From Candidatus Nanopusillus sp. (GTDB lineage Archaea > Nanobdellota > Nanobdellia > Nanobdellales > Nanobdellaceae): a stretch of DNA of 32,000 nt. The stretch is taken from contig JAWDOO010000004.1 in assembly GCA_046533775.1 (NCBI GenBank), positions 15,822-47,821 on the forward strand. The letters are read 5' to 3'. The notes under the pieces were generated by a model. That model searched no databases and was not told the origin of the DNA. It was given only the letters and a program-made list of their open reading frames with translations. The position numbers were made by a program, and so were the translations under genes. The number at the start of each line of letters is the position of its first letter. Within the stretch, counting starts at the first letter, position 1. Positions 2 to 28,408 of this stretch are shown in pieces.

Positions 2-1270
2 TTTATAACAGAAAATTATGACCAAATTAAAGGATGGTTTTATTCTTTAGCAATGATAGGTGAATTATATTATAATGATATACCATATAAAAATGTGTAT
101 GTTGGTGGATATGTTTTAGATATATATGGAAGGAAAATGTCAAAATCTTTAGGAAATGTTGTTTCTCCATATGATATAATTAATAAATATGGAGCAGATA
201 CAATGAGATTATATTTAGGATCTATTGTAGAGGCATATGAAGATATAAAATTAAAATGGGAAGATATAAAAGTTAAATATCAAGTATTAAATACATTATT
301 AAACATTTCAACATATTTAGAAGAATATTCCAAATATTATAATATAAATCCTGCAAAAATAAATGTAGAAAATTTGAGATGGGAAGATAGATATATGTTA
401 CATTTCATAGAAAAAAGTAAAAAAGAAATATATAATGCATTAGATAACTATTTAATATGGAAGGCAGGAAGAATATTACAAGATATGATATTAGAATTAT
501 CAAGATTCTATATAAAAGCTACAAGAGAAAGAATAAAAAGAGAACCTGATAAAGTATTATTTGTAATATATAAATCATTATATAATATAATAAATGTTGG
601 ATCTATTATAATTCCATTTATATCAGAATATATTTATCAAAAATTAAGAAATTTATATGGATTAAATGAAGAATCAATAATTTTAGAAGACTTACCAAAA
701 GTTGAAGAACAATATATAGATGAAAAAATAGAGAAAGAATATGAATTATTTAATATAATTGTTGAAAATGCATTAAAATTAAGAAATATGTTAAATATAA
801 ATATAAGAAAACCATTAAAAACATTATATTTATATAAAGATGATGGGGGTATTTTATTTGAAATAATAAATAATAATGATATTGTAGAATTATTAAAAGA
901 TTATTTAAATGTAAAAGAAATAAAGATTGATAATTTAGAAAAGGATTATGTAACTGCACAAACTGATTATGGAATTATAAAAATAGGGTTTGATACAAAA
1001 TATTATCCAGAATTAGAGGAGGAATGGTTATATAGGGAAATAAGAAGGAGATTACAAGATATAAGAAAAGAAAACAAATTAAGAAAAGGTCAGAAGGCAA
1101 ATATAGAAATATACGCTGATGAAAAGCTATTAAATATAATAAGAAAATATAAAGATACCTTAGAAAAGGATACAGATACTGTAATAATAATAAAAGACTC
1201 AAATGAAGGTCTAAATAATGTAGAAAAAATATATGAAATGAACATATTTTATAGGCTAAATATTTTATAA
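2..1270 (+). CDS. ileS: Isoleucyl-tRNA synthetase, C-terminal portion (5' end outside the window)
   Basis: The frame is open from nt 2 ([16 protein letters not shown]...), so the ATG at 53 is internal. The class-I KMSKS loop is present ([12 protein letters not shown]). The DQxKGWFYS block before KMSKS is IleRS-type rather than ValRS or LeuRS. A long helical C-terminal region follows. Confidence 0.8.
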
Positions 1271-7363: not shown

Positions 7364-9142
7364 CTAATTGATCTTATATTTTTTTATATTTAAATAATCT
7401 TTAATAAAATTATACAACTCTTTACCAATCTTTTTCTCATTTTCCTTCATAACTTTAGACAGATCTTTTATTATTTCAATATTTTCTTCAATTATTTTTT
7501 CCTTTAAATTTATATCTGGTTTGATTTCTAATTTCTCTAAATTTTCTTCCATTTTTCTTGTAAAGTTTATATCTAAAATATCTGGATAATATTTCTCAAA
7601 TATTTCAACAATTTTTTTACCTAATTCAGTGATTTTTATTGATTTACCTTCTACATATCTTCTTTTAAATAATATTTCAACAATGTCTGCCCTTGTACTT
7701 TTTGTTCCTAGATTCAATTCTTCCATTTTTTTAACTAAGGAAGCTTTATTGTATCTTGCTGGTGGTTTTGTTTTTTTCTTTAATATATAAACTTTATCTA
7801 TAAACAACTTTTCTCCAACATTAAATTTTAAAGAAATAAAATTATCCTTATATTTTTCCCAATAAATATCCAACCATCCTTTATATTTTATATCATAATA
7901 ATCATAAACAAAATTTTCTTTTGTAATAACATTTATTTTATATACTATTGCTGGATCATAAAATGTAGCAATAAATCTTCTAACTACTAAATCGTAAATT
8001 AATTTTTCCTTATATTCTAAATATTCTGGAATATTTCCTGTAGGGTGTATTGCTGGATGTACATCATCTTTAGATCCATTGTTTGGTTTTAAAATTTGTT
8101 TTTCCAATAAAAGAACAATATACTTTTTATAAGAATTTATTAATGATAAATTTGATAATATTTCTTTAAAATTAATTGTTTCTGGTAATCTTTGAGAGGA
8201 TGTTCTTGGATAAGAAACATAACCCTTTTCATATAAAGATTGTAAAATATCTAAAGTTCTTTTTGGACTAATTTTATAATATTTATATGCATCCATCTGT
8301 ATATCTGTTAAATTATATGGATGTGGTGAATTTATTTTTTCCTCTTTTTTATCTACATTATTAACAATTAAGTATTTTTCTAAATTATTTTTTATTTTGT
8401 TTGCTTCATCTTTATCCTTTATTTTGTCTTTTATATATGAGAATTTTAATTTTTTATTATCTTTTATAACCAAAGCTTCAACTTTGTAATATTCTTCAGG
8501 TTTAAAATTTTCAATTTCTCTTTCTCTATTAAATACTAACATTAATGTTGGGCCTTGAACCCTTCCAATGCTTAAAACAAACTTTCTAGTATAATAAAAT
8601 AAAGACCTTGTTAATGCTCTAGATAGATTTATACCATATAACCAATCAATTATATGTCTTGTCTCTCCAGCATATATATATCCAAAATTTAAACTTTCTT
8701 TCCTATTATTAAAAGCTCTTACAATATCTTTATATGTTATTGCAGAAAATATCATTCTATTTGCATTTTCTTTATTTAATATATATCTTAAAATATTATA
8801 ACCTATTAATTCTCCTTCTATATCGTAATCTGTTGCAATTATTATATTATTTTCATTTCTAAATTTACTGAACATTTCAATATAATATTTCTTTGCAATA
8901 ATTCTATCCTCAAAATATGATGGAACCCATCTATAATTGAACGTAGGATAGTCATATTTTTTATCTAAATCTGATAATGTAAATAAATGACCGATTGACG
9001 GAACAACATATACATTTTTTCCCTCCAGATTGAAATAATAATAGTATATATATTTTGAAAATTTTATTGTTTTATATTTATTATTTGATAAAAACGATGA
9101 AATCTTTCTAGCTACAGAAGGTTTTTCTGCAATTATTAACAT
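7364..9142 (-). CDS. topA: DNA topoisomerase, type IA (TopA/Topo III-like)
   Basis: The Toprim N-terminus is MLIIAEKPSVARKI, the acidic cluster is IIATDYDIEGE, and the active-site Tyr motif is GYVSYPRTSSQ. No helicase domain and no Zn-finger tail are present. Confidence 0.85.
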   Translation of the reverse strand: MLIIAEKPSVARKISSFLSNNKYKTIKFSKYIYYYYFNLEGKNVYVVPSIGHLFTLSDLDKKYDYPTFNYRWVPSYFEDRIIAKKYYIEMFSKFRNENNIIIATDYDIEGELIGYNILRYILNKENANRMIFSAITYKDIVRAFNNRKESLNFGYIYAGETRHIIDWLYGINLSRALTRSLFYYTRKFVLSIGRVQGPTLMLVFNREREIENFKPEEYYKVEALVIKDNKKLKFSYIKDKIKDKDEANKIKNNLEKYLIVNNVDKKEEKINSPHPYNLTDIQMDAYKYYKISPKRTLDILQSLYEKGYVSYPRTSSQRLPETINFKEILSNLSLINSYKKYIVLLLEKQILKPNNGSKDDVHPAIHPTGNIPEYLEYKEKLIYDLVVRRFIATFYDPAIVYKINVITKENFVYDYYDIKYKGWLDIYWEKYKDNFISLKFNVGEKLFIDKVYILKKKTKPPARYNKASLVKKMEELNLGTKSTRADIVEILFKRRYVEGKSIKITELGKKIVEIFEKYYPDILDINFTRKMEENLEKLEIKPDINLKEKIIEENIEIIKDLSKVMKENEKKIGKELYNFIKDYLNIKKYKIN

Positions 9143-10221
9143 TAATTATATTTCTTAAATAATTCTATATAATTTTCGCATATTTTCTTTTTAATAATAT
9201 TTCCATCATAACAAATACCAAATCCTCCGCCAGGTTCTTTTTTCCATTCATTTACAATATCTCCAAATGTCCAAATAAATACTGGAATATTTGAATAAAT
9301 CTTTTTTATATATTTTATTACTTCTTCAATATATTTATATCTAGTTTTTTCTTCTTCATAATTTTTAGCATATAGACCTGTTTCTGTTATCCAAATATCA
9401 TTAACTCCAGATAATTTTTTATAGTGAAATATTACATTCTGAATATCTTTTGGATTATATGAATTTATTATCCTTAGTAATTTGCTTCCAAGATAATTTT
9501 TTCCATGCAAATTAAATCCAAAAATTCCATAATAATTTATATCTAATACATTATAATAATTTCTCAATTTTTTAATTTGATCTTCAGAAGATTTCAAGAA
9601 TTTATTAAGTATTATTCCTATATTTGTTGGATAGAGAGAATAAACGTCAAAATGTATTATCTTTTCTCCTTTTAATTCATCATAAATATATTCTTGTATT
9701 TCTTCTACATTTTTTAAAAATCTGTTTAGATAAAAGATTCCTTTTGGATTTATTTGGGTATTTATCAAATATGTATTTATTGGCTCATTTATAGGAGATA
9801 TATGTTTCACATAGCTAAATATTTCTTTTACATTTTCTATATGATTTATAAAATACTTGGGAAAATCTTTATCAAAAATACTTACCCAATTTCTTGGATA
9901 TGTAAAATGTAATAATACCAATAATATGTCAATCCCCTGATCTCTATATTGTTCTAATAAATATAAAATATTTCTTAATTTATTTTTATCTATTTTTCCA
10001 TCTGAATTTTCTACGTATGATGGTAAATAAGATAGTCTAATATTTTTTATATTATATTGTAATGTTGAGAGTTCTATTAATTTATCTAAATCTAATTTAT
10101 TATCTAAATCTATATTAACTTTTCTATTATCTAAAAAACTATATTTTTTATAGATTATATCATTCTCCAGATTTGATTCTCTAGCAACCTGAACTAAACT
10201 ATAGGATATACCTATAGTCAT
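9142..10221 (-). CDS. Clan GH-A (GH1/GH5-like) TIM-barrel glycoside hydrolase, short form
   Basis: It has an LLHFTYPRNW block, a candidate acid/base Glu in SPINEP, a candidate nucleophile Glu in IWITETG, and a C-terminal W..GD...EW...GFG block. At 359 aa it is shorter than a typical GH1. Its stop overlaps the topA start (TAATG). Confidence 0.6.
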   Translation of the reverse strand: MTIGISYSLVQVARESNLENDIIYKKYSFLDNRKVNIDLDNKLDLDKLIELSTLQYNIKNIRLSYLPSYVENSDGKIDKNKLRNILYLLEQYRDQGIDILLVLLHFTYPRNWVSIFDKDFPKYFINHIENVKEIFSYVKHISPINEPINTYLINTQINPKGIFYLNRFLKNVEEIQEYIYDELKGEKIIHFDVYSLYPTNIGIILNKFLKSSEDQIKKLRNYYNVLDINYYGIFGFNLHGKNYLGSKLLRIINSYNPKDIQNVIFHYKKLSGVNDIWITETGLYAKNYEEEKTRYKYIEEVIKYIKKIYSNIPVFIWTFGDIVNEWKKEPGGGFGICYDGNIIKKKICENYIELFKKYN

Positions 10222-23107: not shown

Positions 23108-24607
23108 TTATAATATTAAAAATAATTCTTTTGGCATATATAATATATTATCTTTAAATTCCAATTCATAATCTCCAATAATAATTCCAAAATTTGATTT
23201 ATATCTTTTCATACTATTTTCTATTTGTTTTTCTGCATTTTTATCTTTTCCAAATTTAACTTCTATAGGTATTATTTTATTTTCAAAGGTTTTTATTAAA
23301 AAATCTGCACTATTTTTATTAGGATCATAAAAAATTTTTATATTTAACATATTATGAGTTACTTGTATTTTATATAATGTTGAAGCTATGTATTCTTCAA
23401 GTAGAAAACCAATATCACTTTCCCTAAATGTTCCTAAATAATCTTTTATCATAAATCTTATTGTTGGTGTTATAAAGTAATATTTCCATGATTTTTTTAT
23501 TATTTTTTCTTCACTTCCTAATGGTTTAACAGAAAATATTAAAGAAGACATTTCTAAAAGTCTTAAAATGTTTTGTACAGAATATTTATTAATTTTTAAA
23601 TCGTTTGAAATATTTTCTATACTTGTTTTTTCAGAACCTGCTAAGTAGTATATAAGTTTTAGAGCATTTTCTATGCTTGAATAATATATATCTTTTATTT
23701 TTGAAATATCAGAATAAGTAATCTTTTTAATTGTCTCCAATAACAAATCTTCAGAATCTTTTTTATATAATGCTGTAAAAGGAAAACCTCCAAATTTTAG
23801 AAAATCTTCAATTTCAAAAGAAAACAATTTTATTTTTTTATATATTTCTATAATTTCGTTATTAGTAAAAAATTCACTAGCAAATTTAGGAATAAAATTT
23901 GCATTATTTAATAATTTTAGTATTTTTTCCCTAATTATTGAGGTTCTATAATATTTATCTATCTTTTTTGATATTTTTAAATATTCAATAAAGTTTAAAG
24001 GAAATAAATATTCTTTTTTAGCCCTTCTAGCTAAATCTGCATTGGTTTCTTTTTCTAATTCTAATGTAGAGGAACCTGTAGCAATTATAAATATATTTGG
24101 ATACTCATCATAAATAACTTTTAATGTTAGAGCCCAATTTGGATCATGATTTATCTCATCTAATAATAAAAATACGGGTTCTTTTGAGTTTACTAAATCT
24201 TCAAACAAAATTTTAGATTCGTAAATTTCTATACTGGATCTTAAATCATAATTAAGACTTTTTAAGTCATCTACAGATATAAACAATATCCTTTCTCTAG
24301 GCATATTCTTTTCTTTAATTAGATACAAATATATTTGATATAACAATGTTGTTTTACCAGTTCCTCTTAATCCAGGTATGATAATTAATCTATTAATTTT
24401 TTCATTTTTTTCAAGAAAATTATTTATATGGTTTTTTATTCTGGAAAAAATATGTCTTTTTGGAAGTGGTTTATTATTATCATCTGTAGTATATTTTAAG
24501 GCCAACTTTTCTGTATATTGAATTCTTCTTTCTAGGTAAGTCTTTAGTATATCAATGTCCATAATATTGTAATAATGTTTAATATTATAAATATTATTTT
24601 TTATCAT
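23108..24607 (-). CDS. AAA+ ATPase of the COG1373/DUF4143 type with a C-terminal PD-(D/E)xK-like module
   Basis: Walker A is PGLRGTGKTT and Walker B is FLLLDEINH. A middle wHTH-like region is followed by the C-terminal ADFLI...IPIEVKFG motif. Confidence 0.8.
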   Translation of the reverse strand: MIKNNIYNIKHYYNIMDIDILKTYLERRIQYTEKLALKYTTDDNNKPLPKRHIFSRIKNHINNFLEKNEKINRLIIIPGLRGTGKTTLLYQIYLYLIKEKNMPRERILFISVDDLKSLNYDLRSSIEIYESKILFEDLVNSKEPVFLLLDEINHDPNWALTLKVIYDEYPNIFIIATGSSTLELEKETNADLARRAKKEYLFPLNFIEYLKISKKIDKYYRTSIIREKILKLLNNANFIPKFASEFFTNNEIIEIYKKIKLFSFEIEDFLKFGGFPFTALYKKDSEDLLLETIKKITYSDISKIKDIYYSSIENALKLIYYLAGSEKTSIENISNDLKINKYSVQNILRLLEMSSLIFSVKPLGSEEKIIKKSWKYYFITPTIRFMIKDYLGTFRESDIGFLLEEYIASTLYKIQVTHNMLNIKIFYDPNKNSADFLIKTFENKIIPIEVKFGKDKNAEKQIENSMKRYKSNFGIIIGDYELEFKDNILYMPKELFLIL

Positions 24608-24769
24608 AGTAATTAGTATATATGACTTTATAATATTATACTAATATTTGGTATTAAATATATATAATTTTTATCATAATTGTTGGTATATAAGTATCAT
24701 GTTTATATCCTAAAAATTGAGATGAAAATATAAATTATTATTGTACAAAATTATGTGATAATGAGAAAA

Positions 24770-27343
24770 CTATATTATCTTATTTAACTCTTTTAAACTC
24801 TTTTTATCTAAATCTTTTAATATTAGTTGATATAAATTATCATTTTCATCAATAAACAAAATTTTATCTTCAAAAACAAAAAGATTTTCTGGAGAAATTA
24901 TTTTTATCTCTAATTCTTTACTATTTATAAAAGCATTTAATAATATTGTTTCTCCTTCAACATCTATTTTTCTTATTTTCTCTATTTTATATATTATAGA
25001 ATTATATTTTATGACATTTTCTAATATTTTTTTAGAATTTTCATCTAAAATTGTATAATCTTCTAATAAAAATATTTCGTTGGAATTATCATCATAAAAT
25101 CCTAAAAATTTTGGGTTTGATATTGGGAATAATAATTTAGGCATAAGATTTTCATATTTTATACCATTATATATAATATTTACTCTACTTGGTCTATTAG
25201 AAGGTTCTATTTTTATATTTTTATCTTTTATTATATTTAAATTAACTAATTCTGGTTTTTGATTAACCTTTTCTATATTATTTATATTTTCTATTTGATT
25301 CTTAAATAATTCGTAGAATTTTCCCTTTTTATTTATTAATTCATTAGGTTTTCCTTCTTCTATAATCTTTCCATCTTCTATAACAATAACTCTATCCATA
25401 CTTAATATTTCCGATAAATTGTGTGAAATATATATTAAAGTTTTGTCTTTTGAAATATTTAATATAGAAGAAAATATTTGTTCTCTACTTTTAGCATCAA
25501 TATTTGATGTTAATTCATCAAATATAAATATATCAGGATTTCTTATTATATTTCTTGCAATTGCTATTTTTTGTCTTTGACCTCCAGATAATTTTGTTCC
25601 TTCTTCCCCTGCTGGAGTATCATATGCAAAGGGTAATTTAATTATATCATCATGTATATTTACAATTTTACAAACTTTAATTATTTCTATTTCATTTACA
25701 TTTTGATTTCCATAAGATATATTGTATCTAATAGTATCATCAAAGATTTCTGGATTCTGAGATAAATAAGAAATCCTTTCTCTGAGATATTTTAAATCTA
25801 TATCTTTTATATTTGTATTTCCAATTAATATTTCTCCATCATTTACATCATAGAATCTTAATAATAATTTCGCAATTGTTGTTTTCCCAGCACCATTTTT
25901 TCCAACAATTGCAACTTTTTCTTTTGGATTTATTGTAAAAGAAATGTTTTTTAATACAGGAAAACCTGGTTCATATTCAAATGTAACATTAACAAATTTT
26001 ATTTCATCAATCATATTTGTTTTTAAAGCATCTTCTTTATTTAATATTTTTGGTTTTTCTTCTAATAATTCTAAAATTCTTTCGGCGGAAACTAAAGCTT
26101 CTGGAAGATCATTGAAAAATCTTTCATATGTTTGGAGTGGACTATAAATATTTAATATATAAGTTACAAAAGCAACCAATATACCTAATTTGATTAAACT
26201 ATTAGTTACAAAAATTCCACCCATATACCATATAAAAACAGTAATTAAATCTATTATAAGGAATATTAATTCACCTCTTGTTGAAATAAGTTTGTCCACT
26301 TTAATATCTATTGTATACCAAGAGCTCATTATATTTTTTATTTTTTCATATTCTTCTTTTTCTTTTGAGAATAGCTTAATAGTGTAAAAATTCTTTAAAA
26401 TATTATTCACTTGTGTTTCAACGTCTACTGACTTTATTCTTGCTTTTTTACTCATTGTTTCTATTCTCCTTTCATAAATTATAAAAAGAACAAAGATAAC
26501 TGTTGCAGAAATTATTACAGGTATTGCTAAAAAGGGCAACAATAGAAAAAGTATAATAAGGGTTCCAATAAGTGTTAGAGTATCTATAATTATAAAGGTC
26601 AAATCAGCTACAAGAAATCTGTTTATTTCTCCTATATCAGATGAATATCTAGCTATTAATCTAGAAGGGGAATATTTTTCTATAAAAGAAATATCATTAA
26701 AAATTATATGTTCTAATAATAACTCTCTTATTTCTTTTGTAATTTTTGTTTCTACAATGTTTAATAAAATATTTCCCATTAAATATGAAAACCTAGAAGT
26801 AATATAAGAAATTAACATTAAGAAAATTATTGTAAGAAATACTCCAAATGATGGTGTTTTTGATATAAGAACTTTATTTATTAATAAAGCTATTAAATAA
26901 GGAGGAATTAGACTTATTATAGTACCTATAATAAAGATAATAGTAACTAAGGCAAATTCTTTCTTATATTTTTTAATAATTTGTATTAAAAATCCATATA
27001 TTTCTTTTTTAGATTTTTTCTTTTCTTCTTTTTCAATTATTTCAGTTTTTACTTTTAAATTAAATTCATCTACAATTTTTTGTATATTATCTGCCTTTTT
27101 CTTTGTAAAATATGCAACTTCAAAAAATTTTCCATTTTTATCTATTGCAATTAATTTACATATACTTATTCCATACTCTATATCTAACTTTTCTACATTA
27201 TCAATTTCTAATATTTTATTTTTATTATTATCGTATACAGAAATTTTGTTATCTAAAATTTCAATAGTTTCTTCATTAAAATTAAGATTCCTATCAAGAT
27301 CTGTTTTAAATACTGCTTTAAAATGATCTGTCATAAAAAACAT
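24770..27343 (-). CDS. ABC exporter (6-TM domain + NBD, MsbA/ABCB-like) with extra soluble N-terminal (~125 aa) and C-terminal (~170 aa, DUF1854-like) domains
   Basis: The NBD has Walker A GKNGAGKTT, signature LSGGQRQKIAIARN, Walker B IFIFDELTSNID and H-loop YISHN, and six TM helices precede it. The C-terminal tail has LLFPISNP...EIFLLED...LDE.SKK.LE...Y...I.KI..I...GE, which matches my recollection of DUF1854. Confidence 0.85.
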   Translation of the reverse strand: MFFMTDHFKAVFKTDLDRNLNFNEETIEILDNKISVYDNNKNKILEIDNVEKLDIEYGISICKLIAIDKNGKFFEVAYFTKKKADNIQKIVDEFNLKVKTEIIEKEEKKKSKKEIYGFLIQIIKKYKKEFALVTIIFIIGTIISLIPPYLIALLINKVLISKTPSFGVFLTIIFLMLISYITSRFSYLMGNILLNIVETKITKEIRELLLEHIIFNDISFIEKYSPSRLIARYSSDIGEINRFLVADLTFIIIDTLTLIGTLIILFLLLPFLAIPVIISATVIFVLFIIYERRIETMSKKARIKSVDVETQVNNILKNFYTIKLFSKEKEEYEKIKNIMSSWYTIDIKVDKLISTRGELIFLIIDLITVFIWYMGGIFVTNSLIKLGILVAFVTYILNIYSPLQTYERFFNDLPEALVSAERILELLEEKPKILNKEDALKTNMIDEIKFVNVTFEYEPGFPVLKNISFTINPKEKVAIVGKNGAGKTTIAKLLLRFYDVNDGEILIGNTNIKDIDLKYLRERISYLSQNPEIFDDTIRYNISYGNQNVNEIEIIKVCKIVNIHDDIIKLPFAYDTPAGEEGTKLSGGQRQKIAIARNIIRNPDIFIFDELTSNIDAKSREQIFSSILNISKDKTLIYISHNLSEILSMDRVIVIEDGKIIEEGKPNELINKKGKFYELFKNQIENINNIEKVNQKPELVNLNIIKDKNIKIEPSNRPSRVNIIYNGIKYENLMPKLLFPISNPKFLGFYDDNSNEIFLLEDYTILDENSKKILENVIKYNSIIYKIEKIRKIDVEGETILLNAFINSKELEIKIISPENLFVFEDKILFIDENDNLYQLILKDLDKKSLKELNKII

Positions 27344-27479
27344 ATTATTGTAAATTTACTTAAAAATAAAAATTATGGCAAAGATTTTCCTAAAATTATT
27401 GTGTTTAATATTTAAATATTACAATATATTATATGATTTTATAGATAAATTTATATAGATAAAGATATATCTATAATTT

Positions 27480-27719
27480 ATGCCTAAAAGATGGAAAACA
27501 ATTTCAACGCAAATAAGAGAGGAAGAATATAAAAAGGCAAAAGAGTTGGGTATTAACATTTCTGAAGTATTAAGGAAAGCATTAAGAGAAGAAATTAAAA
27601 GAAAAGAAGAAGAGAAAATATTAGAAGCAATAAAAAGGTTAGGAGAATTACTGGAAAAAACAGGTGCTACTCCTGAAGAAAATATAAAAATAATAAGAGA
27701 AATTAGAGAGGAAAATTAG
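27480..27719 (+). CDS. vapB: Ribbon-helix-helix-type antitoxin (VapB-like)
   Basis: The protein is small (79 aa). An N-terminal strand and helices (KTISTQIREEEYKKAKELGINISEVLRKALREEI) fit the fold. Its stop lies 1 nt before the PIN gene start. Confidence 0.7.
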   Translation: MPKRWKTISTQIREEEYKKAKELGINISEVLRKALREEIKRKEEEKILEAIKRLGELLEKTGATPEENIKIIREIREEN

Positions 27720-27720
27720 A

Positions 27721-28128
27721 ATGAAATATGTGATCGATGCTTCTGCTCTAATAAATATTGTTTTGAAGTTCTATAAAAAAGATCTAAATTTTATAAATAG
27801 ATTGATTGAAGAAAGTATTTTTCCAGATTTAATATTTTATGAAGTTGGAAGCTATTTAAGAAAGTATAAGGAAATAAAGAAAGTTTCCAATAATGAAATA
27901 AGAGAAATGACGGAATTATTTAATTATATAATCAGAAAAGCAAAAATAGAGGAGGTAAGATTAAATTATGAAATTCTAGATTTATCAATAAAAGAAAATT
28001 TATCTTATTATGATTCTGTATATTTATATTTAGCTGGGAAATATAATTTAATTTTAATTAGTGATGATAAAGATTTAATTAAAGAAGGAGCTATAAGTTC
28101 TGATAATCTTCTAAGAAATTTTAAGTAA
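27721..28128 (+). CDS. vapC: PIN-domain toxin (VapC family)
   Basis: PIN acidic residues are in context (YVIDASALI, FYEVGSYL, YYDSVYLYLA, LISDDKDL). The protein is 135 aa. Confidence 0.8.
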   Translation: MKYVIDASALINIVLKFYKKDLNFINRLIEESIFPDLIFYEVGSYLRKYKEIKKVSNNEIREMTELFNYIIRKAKIEEVRLNYEILDLSIKENLSYYDSVYLYLAGKYNLILISDDKDLIKEGAISSDNLLRNFK

Positions 28129-28224
28129 TCTAAGAGCTTTTATTACTTAATTAATTTTTGAAGGTATTGAAGCTTAGAAAGACATTTGAATGTGACGATC
28201 TATAATCTAGATTTAAATTAAATT

Positions 28225-28308
28225 CGCCGCGGGTGGGATTTGAACCCACGCCCCCTTTCGGGGATATGGTCTCCAGCCATACCCCTTGGTCCACTCGGGC
28301 ACCGCGGC
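28225..28308 (-). tRNA. tRNA-Ser (anticodon GGA), class II with a long variable arm, no encoded CCA
   Basis: I folded it manually. The acceptor stem is GCCGCGG/CCGCGGC and the D arm is CCC..GGG. The anticodon stem UAUGG/CCAUA carries loop CUGGAGA. The variable arm is CCCC-GAAA-GGGG and the T arm is GUGGG-UUCAAAU-CCCAC. The discriminator is G. Confidence 0.95.
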
Positions 28309-28313
28309 ATAAG

Positions 28314-28372
28314 TGTTCCCCGCCCATCGTTACCAATACTCATTTTTTCATATTGGTTCGTCTAAGCGGGGA
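28314..28372 (-). ncRNA. Candidate single-hairpin H/ACA box guide sRNA (K-loop type), 5 nt upstream of tRNA-Ser
   Basis: The minus strand reads 5'-UCCCCGC UUAGACGA ACCAAUA UGAAAAAAUGAG UAUUGGU AACGAUGG GCGGGGA ACA-3'. This gives a 7-bp lower stem, an 8+8 internal loop (pocket) and a 7-bp upper stem. The apical loop is closed by potential sheared G.A/A.G pairs (5' UGA...GAG 3'), i.e. a K-loop. ACA follows the lower stem directly, 15 nt from the upper-stem base. The G+C-rich stems are conspicuous in this A+T-rich DNA. Confidence 0.55.
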
Positions 28373-28391
28373 TACATATTTAATATAATTT

Positions 28392-28399
28392 AATATAAA
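28392..28399 (-). promoter_or_regulatory. TATA-like box (TTTATATT on the minus strand) ~20-27 nt upstream of the hairpin 5' end
   Basis: The spacing suits a transcript starting at about the first nucleotide of the hairpin. The signal is weak because the background is A+T-rich. The same 36-bp spacer also precedes the divergent NurA-like gene. Confidence 0.3.
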
Positions 28400-28408
28400 A
28401 ATATTTTT

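Follow-up and report, generated by a model that had tools for sequence, protein, structure and literature searches.

What is encoded by the G+C-rich hairpin that immediately precedes a tRNA-Ser gene in the genome of a Nanopusillus-like nanoarchaeon? The hairpin occupies 59 nucleotides (nt) of a 32-kb stretch of DNA with 22% G+C (hereafter the window) and is numbered on the minus strand, from 28372 to 28314. A preliminary description of this DNA had proposed that it specifies an H/ACA-type pseudouridylation guide RNA, transcribed together with the tRNA and directed at a bipartite target. Our analysis bore out the architecture and the conservation of such an RNA, whereas the predicted bipartite target did not turn up in the sequences scanned. 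Overall, we conclude that the hairpin is probably an unannotated gene for a single-hairpin box H/ACA guide small RNA (sRNA) of the Nanopusillaceae/Nanobdellaceae.

The minus strand reads UCCCCGC UUAGACGA ACCAAUA UGAAAAAAUGAG UAUUGGU AACGAUGG GCGGGGA ACA (Table 1). On re-reading the sequence, the stems, the loop, the ACA box, the 15-nt distance and the 5-nt spacer given in the preliminary description all proved correct to the base. The hairpin folds with a minimum free energy of -26.2 kcal/mol (z = -6.4), and none of 200 shuffled sequences folded equally well. The plus strand reaches -19.9 kcal/mol; the minus strand is the better folder, by about 6 kcal/mol, because of its G.U pairs. The hairpin had also been described as a G+C island, and indeed the window holds only two strong G+C islands, which comprise both tRNAs and the hairpin. 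One detail of the fold has to be read differently. Of the internal loop of 8+8 nt proposed before, the inner 6+6 nt stand as the pocket, whereas the outer 2 nt of each strand probably belong to the lower stem, since U8 and U9 can form G.U wobbles with G49 and G48 (U8.G49, U9.G48) and extend this stem to 9 base pairs (bp). In place of a 7-bp stem and an 8+8 pocket, the canonical reading is thus probably a lower stem of 9 bp and a pocket of 6+6 nt (AGACGA / AACGAU).

Next, we compared the hairpin with the rules that were derived from 23 tested guide-target pairs of P. abyssi (Muller et al. 2008; Toffano-Nioche et al. 2015). Counted with both sheared G.A pairs, the upper or GA stem comprises 10 pairs in 14 of 15 productive P. 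abyssi folds (Toffano-Nioche 2015). In productive archaeal H/ACA folds the 3' guide measures 5–6 nt and the lower stem about 9 bp, and an unbroken distance of 14–15 nt between ACA and GA stem is needed for the activity of the P. abyssi guides. Changes in GA-stem length kill activity; the lengths of guide and lower stem can offset one another. In the window hairpin, seven Watson-Crick pairs plus U.G, G.A and A.G add up to a 10-pair GA stem; the 3' guide AACGAU has 6 nt, the lower stem 9 bp, and ACA lies 15 nt from the GA stem. This is exactly the '10/6/9' combination, the productive fold of subfamily 66 of Toffano-Nioche 2015. The lower stem UCCCCGCUU / GGGCGGGGA adjoins ACA and has nine pairs, two of them G.U, where at least 7 bp (typically 9) are called for; the pocket of 6+6 nt (6+5 in Nanobdella) lies within the range of 5–11 nt per strand, with a 3' guide of 5–6 nt; and ACA stands 15 nt from the first GA-stem pair in six out of six genomes, the rule being an ANA box at 14–15 (maximum 16) nt. 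The tandem G.A pairs are those of a K-loop, a predicted L7Ae site. A descriptor combining the rules of Muller 2008 with a required K-loop was run on both strands of the window and matched at the hairpin site only; eight of 60 simulated windows gave one chance match. Over a further 73 kb of nanoarchaeal DNA (about 105 kb in total), the descriptor returned nothing but the homologous hairpin.

In addition, we scanned a genome collection with a pattern in which the pocket and the GA dinucleotides of the K-loop were fixed and the stems left free. Nine of the 12 matches were bacterial chance matches without complementary stems; the other three, all with perfect stems, came from the Nanoarchaeota Ca. 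Nanopusillus acidilobi, Ca. Nanobsidianus stetteri and strain YN1. The divergent NurA gene, always a neighbour of the hairpin, served as a handle to two remoter relatives, a Nanopusillaceae metagenome-assembled genome (MAG; locus L101, NurA 51% identical) and Nanobdella aerobiophila (locus L099, 57%). Altogether, the hairpin is found at the syntenic NurA locus of six Nanopusillaceae/Nanobdellaceae genomes, that is, the window and five relatives. With the first four copies we built a covariance model, which recovered all six with scores of 60–95 bits (E 1e-12 to 2e-21) and had no further match in 211 kb. Across the relatives, the hairpin is 78–97% identical to that of the window; in the three distant ones the 40 nt upstream are only 35–57% identical (ungapped), and the NurA proteins 51–64%.

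Conservation in relatives had been named beforehand as a check, and the stems, the K-loop and ACA are indeed kept. The 10-pair GA stem and the 15 nt to ACA are present in all six copies, with a 3' guide of 5–6 nt and a lower stem of 8–9 bp. The K-loop motif GA...AUGA is invariant, and its closing pair changes from U.G to A.A in Nanobdella. The latter genome has a 3' guide of 5 nt and a rebuilt lower stem, CCCUGUC/GACAGGG extended by U-A pairs, and one U ahead of ACA brings the distance back to 15 nt; this change of guide and spacer is the type of compensation permitted by the fold rule. The lower stem further shows a double compensatory exchange from C-G to U-A at two pairs (YN1, Nanobdella), and its terminal pair appears as U-A, U.G or C-G. 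In an alignment of the six sequences, 96.7% of the pair cells hold standard pairs, compared with 37–50% when the partners are slid by 1–3 columns, although this alignment was fitted to the covariance model and is hence biased towards it. RNAalifold supports the same structure from these six sequences. The upper stem tells nothing on pairing because it is invariant. As judged from the aligned sequences, support for pairing is real but modest.

As to the link with tRNA-Ser, ACA and tRNA are separated by CUUAU in the window, UUUAU in N. acidilobi and N. stetteri, GAU in the MAG and a single U in YN1 (1–5 nt). The 25 nt preceding position +1 of the tRNA are the G+C-rich 3' half of the hairpin, and for this reason the sole candidate promoter is a TATA-like box 20–27 nt 5' of the hairpin, which had been pointed out before and is confirmed as TTTATATT at 28399..28392. 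Boxes of the TTTAAA/TTTATA type lie at a comparable distance from the hairpin in YN1 and the MAG. In N. equitans, box A of tRNA and H/ACA promoters is located 26 nt ahead of the transcription start (Randau 2012). Spacers of 1–5 nt leave no room for a second promoter, and an sRNA-tRNA precursor is therefore likely; co-transcription with tRNA-Ser in five genomes would be the simplest reading and a plausible one. The linkage is found in 5/6 genomes and is broken in Nanobdella, where both genes have A+T boxes of their own. There, an open reading frame (ORF) of 1320 amino acids without a Pfam domain (L099 2822–6784, minus strand) separates the hairpin from tRNA-Ser, which lies about 4 kb away and carries a TTTAAA box at -32..-27. 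Since the Nanobdella hairpin keeps ACA without an adjoining tRNA, it represents an independent functional module and not a mere tRNA leader. The earlier claim of a dicistronic unit is thus plausible: the short spacers, the single TATA-like box and the presence of RNase P in the clade (Nst1 and N. acidilobi) speak for it, but the link to the tRNA is not obligatory, as seen in Nanobdella. Of note, RNase P is absent from N. equitans, and the RNase P RNA of Nst1 is unusually short.

The precedent invoked for this arrangement, a unit of tRNA and C/D sRNA in N. equitans, exists, but in the reverse order, with the tRNA first and release by RNase Z. More generally, plant tRNA-Gly-snoR43, N. equitans tRNA-Val-sRNA8 and T. 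kodakarensis tRNA-Arg-sR44 also place a guide and a tRNA on one transcript, and a tRNA-processing endonuclease defines one end of the guide, as we propose here. In these units, however, a C/D box RNA lies downstream of the tRNA and is released by RNase Z, whereas in the window the order is reversed, with an H/ACA-type RNA ahead of the tRNA and a 3' end that RNase P would generate 1–5 nt past ACA. In the literature searched, we found no description of an H/ACA RNA upstream of a tRNA with a 3' end made by RNase P.

Two observations concern the genes on either side. The anticodon of the syntenic tRNA-Ser is GGA in the window, N. acidilobi, N. stetteri and YN1, and GCU in the MAG (L101 8832–8916, minus strand) and Nanobdella (L099 2669–2754, minus strand). 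Between window and MAG the anticodon arm differs, while the acceptor, D, variable and T arms are identical bar one D-loop base, which looks like a swap of the anticodon arm between serine isoacceptors. On the other side, just 36 A+T-rich nt (28373–28408) separate the NurA start codon from the hairpin. The divergent promoters of NurA and hairpin must therefore overlap, and the NurA mRNA is probably leaderless.

Comparison with known H/ACA RNAs revealed likeness in architecture. At gathering thresholds, Rfam reported tRNAs only. A permissive Rfam scan of 351 nt gave HgcG/Pab40 with 23.5 bits (gathering score 77; E 9e-5); we rejected homology, as this alignment relies on the A+T-rich leader and on the tRNA being forced into the third hairpin of the model. 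The resemblance to HgcG is one of architecture and not evidence of homology. The same applies to the '10/6/9' sRNAs as a group (Afu46-type, PDB 3HAX; Pab91; Pab40 motif 1 / HgcG RF00064): they share with the window hairpin the 9-bp lower stem, the 6+6 pocket, a K-loop at the end of a 10-pair GA stem, and 15 nt between this stem and ACA, but there is no significant sequence or covariance match, and the gene in the window is fused to a tRNA gene. Pab40 motif 1 has in common a K-loop ending in AAUGA; here, too, the architectures align, the guides are unrelated, and the target UUGC-UA-CCUCG is unmatched by the window guide. The 159-nt H/ACA sRNA of N. equitans (NEQ389–NEQ392; Randau 2012) comes from the same phylum, has K-turn-type GA pairs and an ACA per hairpin, and possesses its own box A promoter, comparable to the putative TATA-like box of the window hairpin. 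It differs as a double hairpin with internal K-turn bulges at another locus without a tRNA neighbour, and homology was rejected on its unrelated guide sequences. Scans of viral contigs for the hairpin gave no structured homologue.

The protein partners of an H/ACA ribonucleoprotein (RNP) can be looked up in the gene and proteome table of N. acidilobi. It lists Nps_01225, an arCOG00987 pseudouridine synthase detected by mass spectrometry, Nps_02055, an arCOG00906 Zn-ribbon RNA-binding protein adjoining eIF2-alpha, and Nps_02695, an L7Ae seen in the proteome. We take arCOG00987 to be Cbf5 and arCOG00906 to be Nop10. Two RNase P protein subunits are present as well, and the gene list also contains a gene of the TruD/Pus7 type.

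Several results weigh against guide function and need to be set beside this evidence. The hairpin alone matches no Rfam H/ACA family; this carries little weight because the Rfam H/ACA models are genus-specific. Gar1 was not found by name in the N. acidilobi gene list. Covariation is modest with six sequences, the observed values being reached in 31–44 of 500 column shuffles. Conservation is higher in the upper stem than in the pocket, contrary to what guide families usually show, and the pocket differs by lineage (AGACGA vs CGAAGA; AACGAU vs AUCGA) in a way that is not G.U-neutral for a fixed target. Finally, the search for a target gave no site. It covered the full 16S and 23S rRNAs of N. equitans and a seven-archaeon consensus (alignments of Dennis et al. 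2015), all from outside the clade in which the hairpin occurs; in a positive control, the consensus guide of Pab40 motif 1 retrieved its experimentally known site as top match (P. abyssi 23S 2588, UUGC-UA-CCUCG). With the window guide, the best 6+6 match in these rRNAs reached 7–8 of 12 pairs, as many as shuffled guides did; the guides of the MAG and Nanobdella, which are variants of it, likewise gave 7–8/12 pairs at shuffle level. The target predicted before, CCAUCGUU-UN-UCGUCUAA, and its G.U-relaxed forms occur neither in these rRNAs nor in the local tRNAs or about 100 kb of local DNA. No bipartite site was found in eight other archaeal 23S genes or in seven local tRNAs, and tRNA-Ser, tRNA-His and tRNA-Ala gave nothing. 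For N. equitans rRNA, absence of a site is uninformative, since this species apparently lacks the sRNA (its sole H/ACA RNA is unrelated).

Individual candidates for a target were considered and set aside. The 5' half-site CCAUCG resembles the loop of archaeal helix 89; N. equitans reads CCAUCGACCCCGCGG there, and a metagenome scan with CCATCGTTT-N(5-20)-CCTCGATGTCGG for this idea produced chance matches only, in G+C-rich bacterial genes. GCAGCCUGUCGUU in 23S rRNA, at the base of the L1 stalk, forms 8/8 pairs with the 3' strand; it is, however, followed by a conserved G and lacks the 3' half, and chance alone should yield about one half-site of this kind per 23S. A target in the peptidyl-transferase centre (CAUCG-AUG-UCGUCU) would demand a non-canonical gap and two substitutions that were not seen together. 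In this region, some archaeal 23S rRNAs (L092, L093; Pca/Tte rows of Dennis 2015) have GUCGUCUC in place of the usual GUCGGCUC at E. coli 2506–2512. The GUCGUCUC variant corresponds to G2509U in the peptidyl-transferase ring and gives a UCGUCU match to the 5' guide in a geometry unfit for an H/ACA target. A target other than rRNA is known from the Sulfolobales/Aeropyrum H/ACA sRNAs, which direct pseudouridine 35 in pre-tRNA-Tyr (Muller 2009, PMC2651775), and may be conceivable here too; by sequence reasoning, however, the window pocket cannot pair the CUG-UA-A context, as position -1 must be U and not G. Besides that, many 'proteins' of 180–390 amino acids in public collections are antisense translations of archaeal 23S rRNA and can be used as handles for contigs. 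We obtained 32 such pseudo-proteins and with them nine archaeal 23S loci (L090–L098), none with flanks of 22% G+C; L090 is a N. equitans-like nanoarchaeal MAG with a 23S rRNA 84% identical to that of N. equitans. A Nanopusillus 16S primer for quantitative PCR gave a chance match only in a viral contig collection.

These results leave two possibilities: the guide co-evolves with a target in an RNA segment that is variable or lineage-specific, or the hairpin has another role. We consider each of the rival explanations much less likely than a guide sRNA. One of them, in our view unlikely, is that the conserved hairpin binds L7Ae through its K-loop without guiding pseudouridylation, as a structural or regulatory sRNA or as a cis element that recruits L7Ae to pre-tRNA-Ser. 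L7Ae is also a subunit of archaeal RNase P, whose RNA is degenerate in this lineage and, as mentioned for Nst1, shortened; moreover, K-loop and upper stem are the best-conserved parts of the hairpin, the pocket is variable and the target scans came back empty for the sequences covered. The authors of the T. kodakarensis study, too, considered that K-turn elements near 5' ends may be cis-regulatory and not snoRNAs. Such a role would nevertheless leave unexplained the invariant ACA and the exact spacings of 15 nt and 10 pairs, which compensation re-establishes in Nanobdella, as well as the retention of the hairpin about 4 kb from a tRNA-Ser with its own TTTAAA box.

That the hairpin is a mere structured 5' leader, which would serve the processing or stability of pre-tRNA-Ser, appears highly improbable. 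Its position directly 5' of the tRNA in five of the six genomes, behind one promoter and with a spacer of 1–5 nt, would suit a leader, but the Nanobdella copy keeps stems, K-loop and ACA despite the intervening 1320-amino-acid ORF, the tRNA-His of the same loci has no such leader, and the hairpin stays unchanged while the anticodon arm of the tRNA downstream switches between GGA and GCU. We are equally sceptical that the inverted repeats act in DNA, as a palindromic operator in the 36-nt region of the divergent NurA and sRNA promoters. ACCAATA-N12-TATTGGT is a perfect inverted repeat, invariant in sequence and always adjoining the NurA start; changes in the lower stem are, however, compensatory and do not preserve half-sites, the U.G pairs (closing, terminal, U8/U9) become C.A mismatches on the opposite strand, where folding is weaker by 6 kcal/mol, and both ACA and the GA dinucleotides of the K-loop are asymmetric features for which a palindrome has no need. 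A chance hairpin in A+T-rich DNA, for which the chance matches of the bare descriptor in eight of 60 simulated windows might speak, is effectively refuted by the high G+C content and the z score of the hairpin and by its retention in six genomes with randomised flanks.

For the guide sRNA that we favour, the following course of events can be envisaged. Transcription would start a few nt 5' of the lower stem, driven by the TATA-like box. L7Ae would bind the K-loop, and Cbf5-Nop10 would clamp the lower stem and ACA, in agreement with the solved H/ACA RNPs. The pocket of 6+6 nt (AGACGA / AACGAU) would thereby come to lie beneath the catalytic site, at a distance of 15 nt from ACA and of 10 pairs from the sheared G.A. 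A substrate 5'-(A)UCGUU-U-N-UCGUCU-3' could then pair with both strands of the pocket, and its unpaired U would be converted to pseudouridine. In the genome of the window and four relatives, the sRNA would be co-transcribed with the tRNA-Ser that starts 1–5 nt past ACA, and a cut by RNase P at the 5' end of the tRNA would give the sRNA a 3' end with a tail of 1–5 nt past ACA. In Nanobdella, the same sRNA would be a stand-alone gene. Going further, one might tentatively suppose an orphan H/ACA RNP that combines an RNase P-made 3' end from an sRNA-tRNA precursor with a substrate that is not part of the conserved rRNA core but a lineage-specific segment of rRNA or a non-ribosomal RNA; taken as a whole, we regard this scenario as rather doubtful. 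If the substrate lies outside the rRNA core, the pocket changes to CGAAGA in the MAG and AUCGA in Nanobdella would track a co-evolving target.

Table 1 Parts of the hairpin and adjoining features in the 32-kb window
Feature	Position	Strand	Remarks
Lower stem, 5' strand: UCCCCGC with wobble extension U8, U9	28364..28372	minus	Pairs with 28317..28325
Pocket, 5' strand (5' guide): AGACGA	28358..28363	minus	Same in 5/6 genomes; CGAAGA in MAG L101
Upper stem, 5' strand: ACCAAUA	28351..28357	minus	Invariant in 6 genomes; pairs with 28332..28338
K-loop: UGAAAAAAUGAG	28339..28350	minus	Closing U.G, tandem sheared G.A / A.G, 6-nt loop with final U
Upper stem, 3' strand: UAUUGGU	28332..28338	minus	Invariant in 6 genomes
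Pocket, 3' strand (3' guide): AACGAU	28326..28331	minus	Same in 5/6 genomes; AUCGA in Nanobdella
Lower stem, 3' strand: GG GCGGGGA	28317..28325	minus	Pairs with 28364..28372
ACA box	28314..28316	minus	Invariant in 6 genomes, including Nanobdella (no tRNA after hairpin)
Spacer CUUAU, from ACA to tRNA G1	28309..28313	minus	Too short for a promoter
tRNA-Ser(GGA)	28225..28308	minus	Rfam RF00005, 56.2 bits; ARAGORN 28309..28224; probable downstream part of the hairpin transcript
TATA-like box: TTTATATT	28392..28399	minus	Putative sRNA(-tRNA) promoter, judged from the sequence

Regarding the surroundings of the locus, Pfam matches in the window include TBP, proteasome, FttA, Cdc6, the small subunit of PolD, the ribosomal proteins S8, S14 and L18, archaellin-like genes and NurA. 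The stop codon of NurA lies directly against the 3' end of tRNA-His, which is encoded on the other strand, or shares one base with it (window 29341/29342; L099 7868; L101 9975). This arrangement is kept in three genera, and NurA lacks HerA, Mre11 and Rad50 as neighbours. Between tRNA-Ser and L18, positions 23108–28128 of the window hold an AAA_14/DUF4143 ATPase, an ABC transporter with a C-terminal DUF1854 and a CcdA/RHH-PIN (VapBC-like) pair. Since L18 directly follows the tRNA in YN1 and the MAG, this block is an apparent accessory insertion. At the beginning of the window, 53–1270 (plus strand) covers no more of a class I aminoacyl-tRNA synthetase than its C-terminal end (C-terminus of tRNA-synt_1 and Anticodon_1), with a stop codon upstream, and at 7364–10221 (minus strand) a Toprim/Topoisom_bac ORF adjoins an ORF of 359 amino acids without a Pfam match. 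Both look like split genes as they occur in Nanoarchaeota, for example for reverse gyrase.

The literature search found no published H/ACA guide RNA for the Nanopusillaceae/Nanobdellaceae. If our interpretation is correct, the hairpin would be the first H/ACA guide RNA of these families, which encode H/ACA proteins, and one that is not in Rfam. It would also reveal a new maturation route for archaeal H/ACA RNAs, with RNase P fixing the 3' end 1–5 nt past ACA, and this in a lineage in which the RNA of RNase P has itself undergone reduction. Two co-cultures of host and symbiont, N. acidilobi with Acidilobus and Nanobdella aerobiophila with its host, make the RNA ends, the RNP and the modified site testable. 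Should there be no target in rRNA, a genome of about 0.6 Mb would have retained an archaeal H/ACA guide that is an orphan or acts on RNAs other than rRNA, which would imply an important function.

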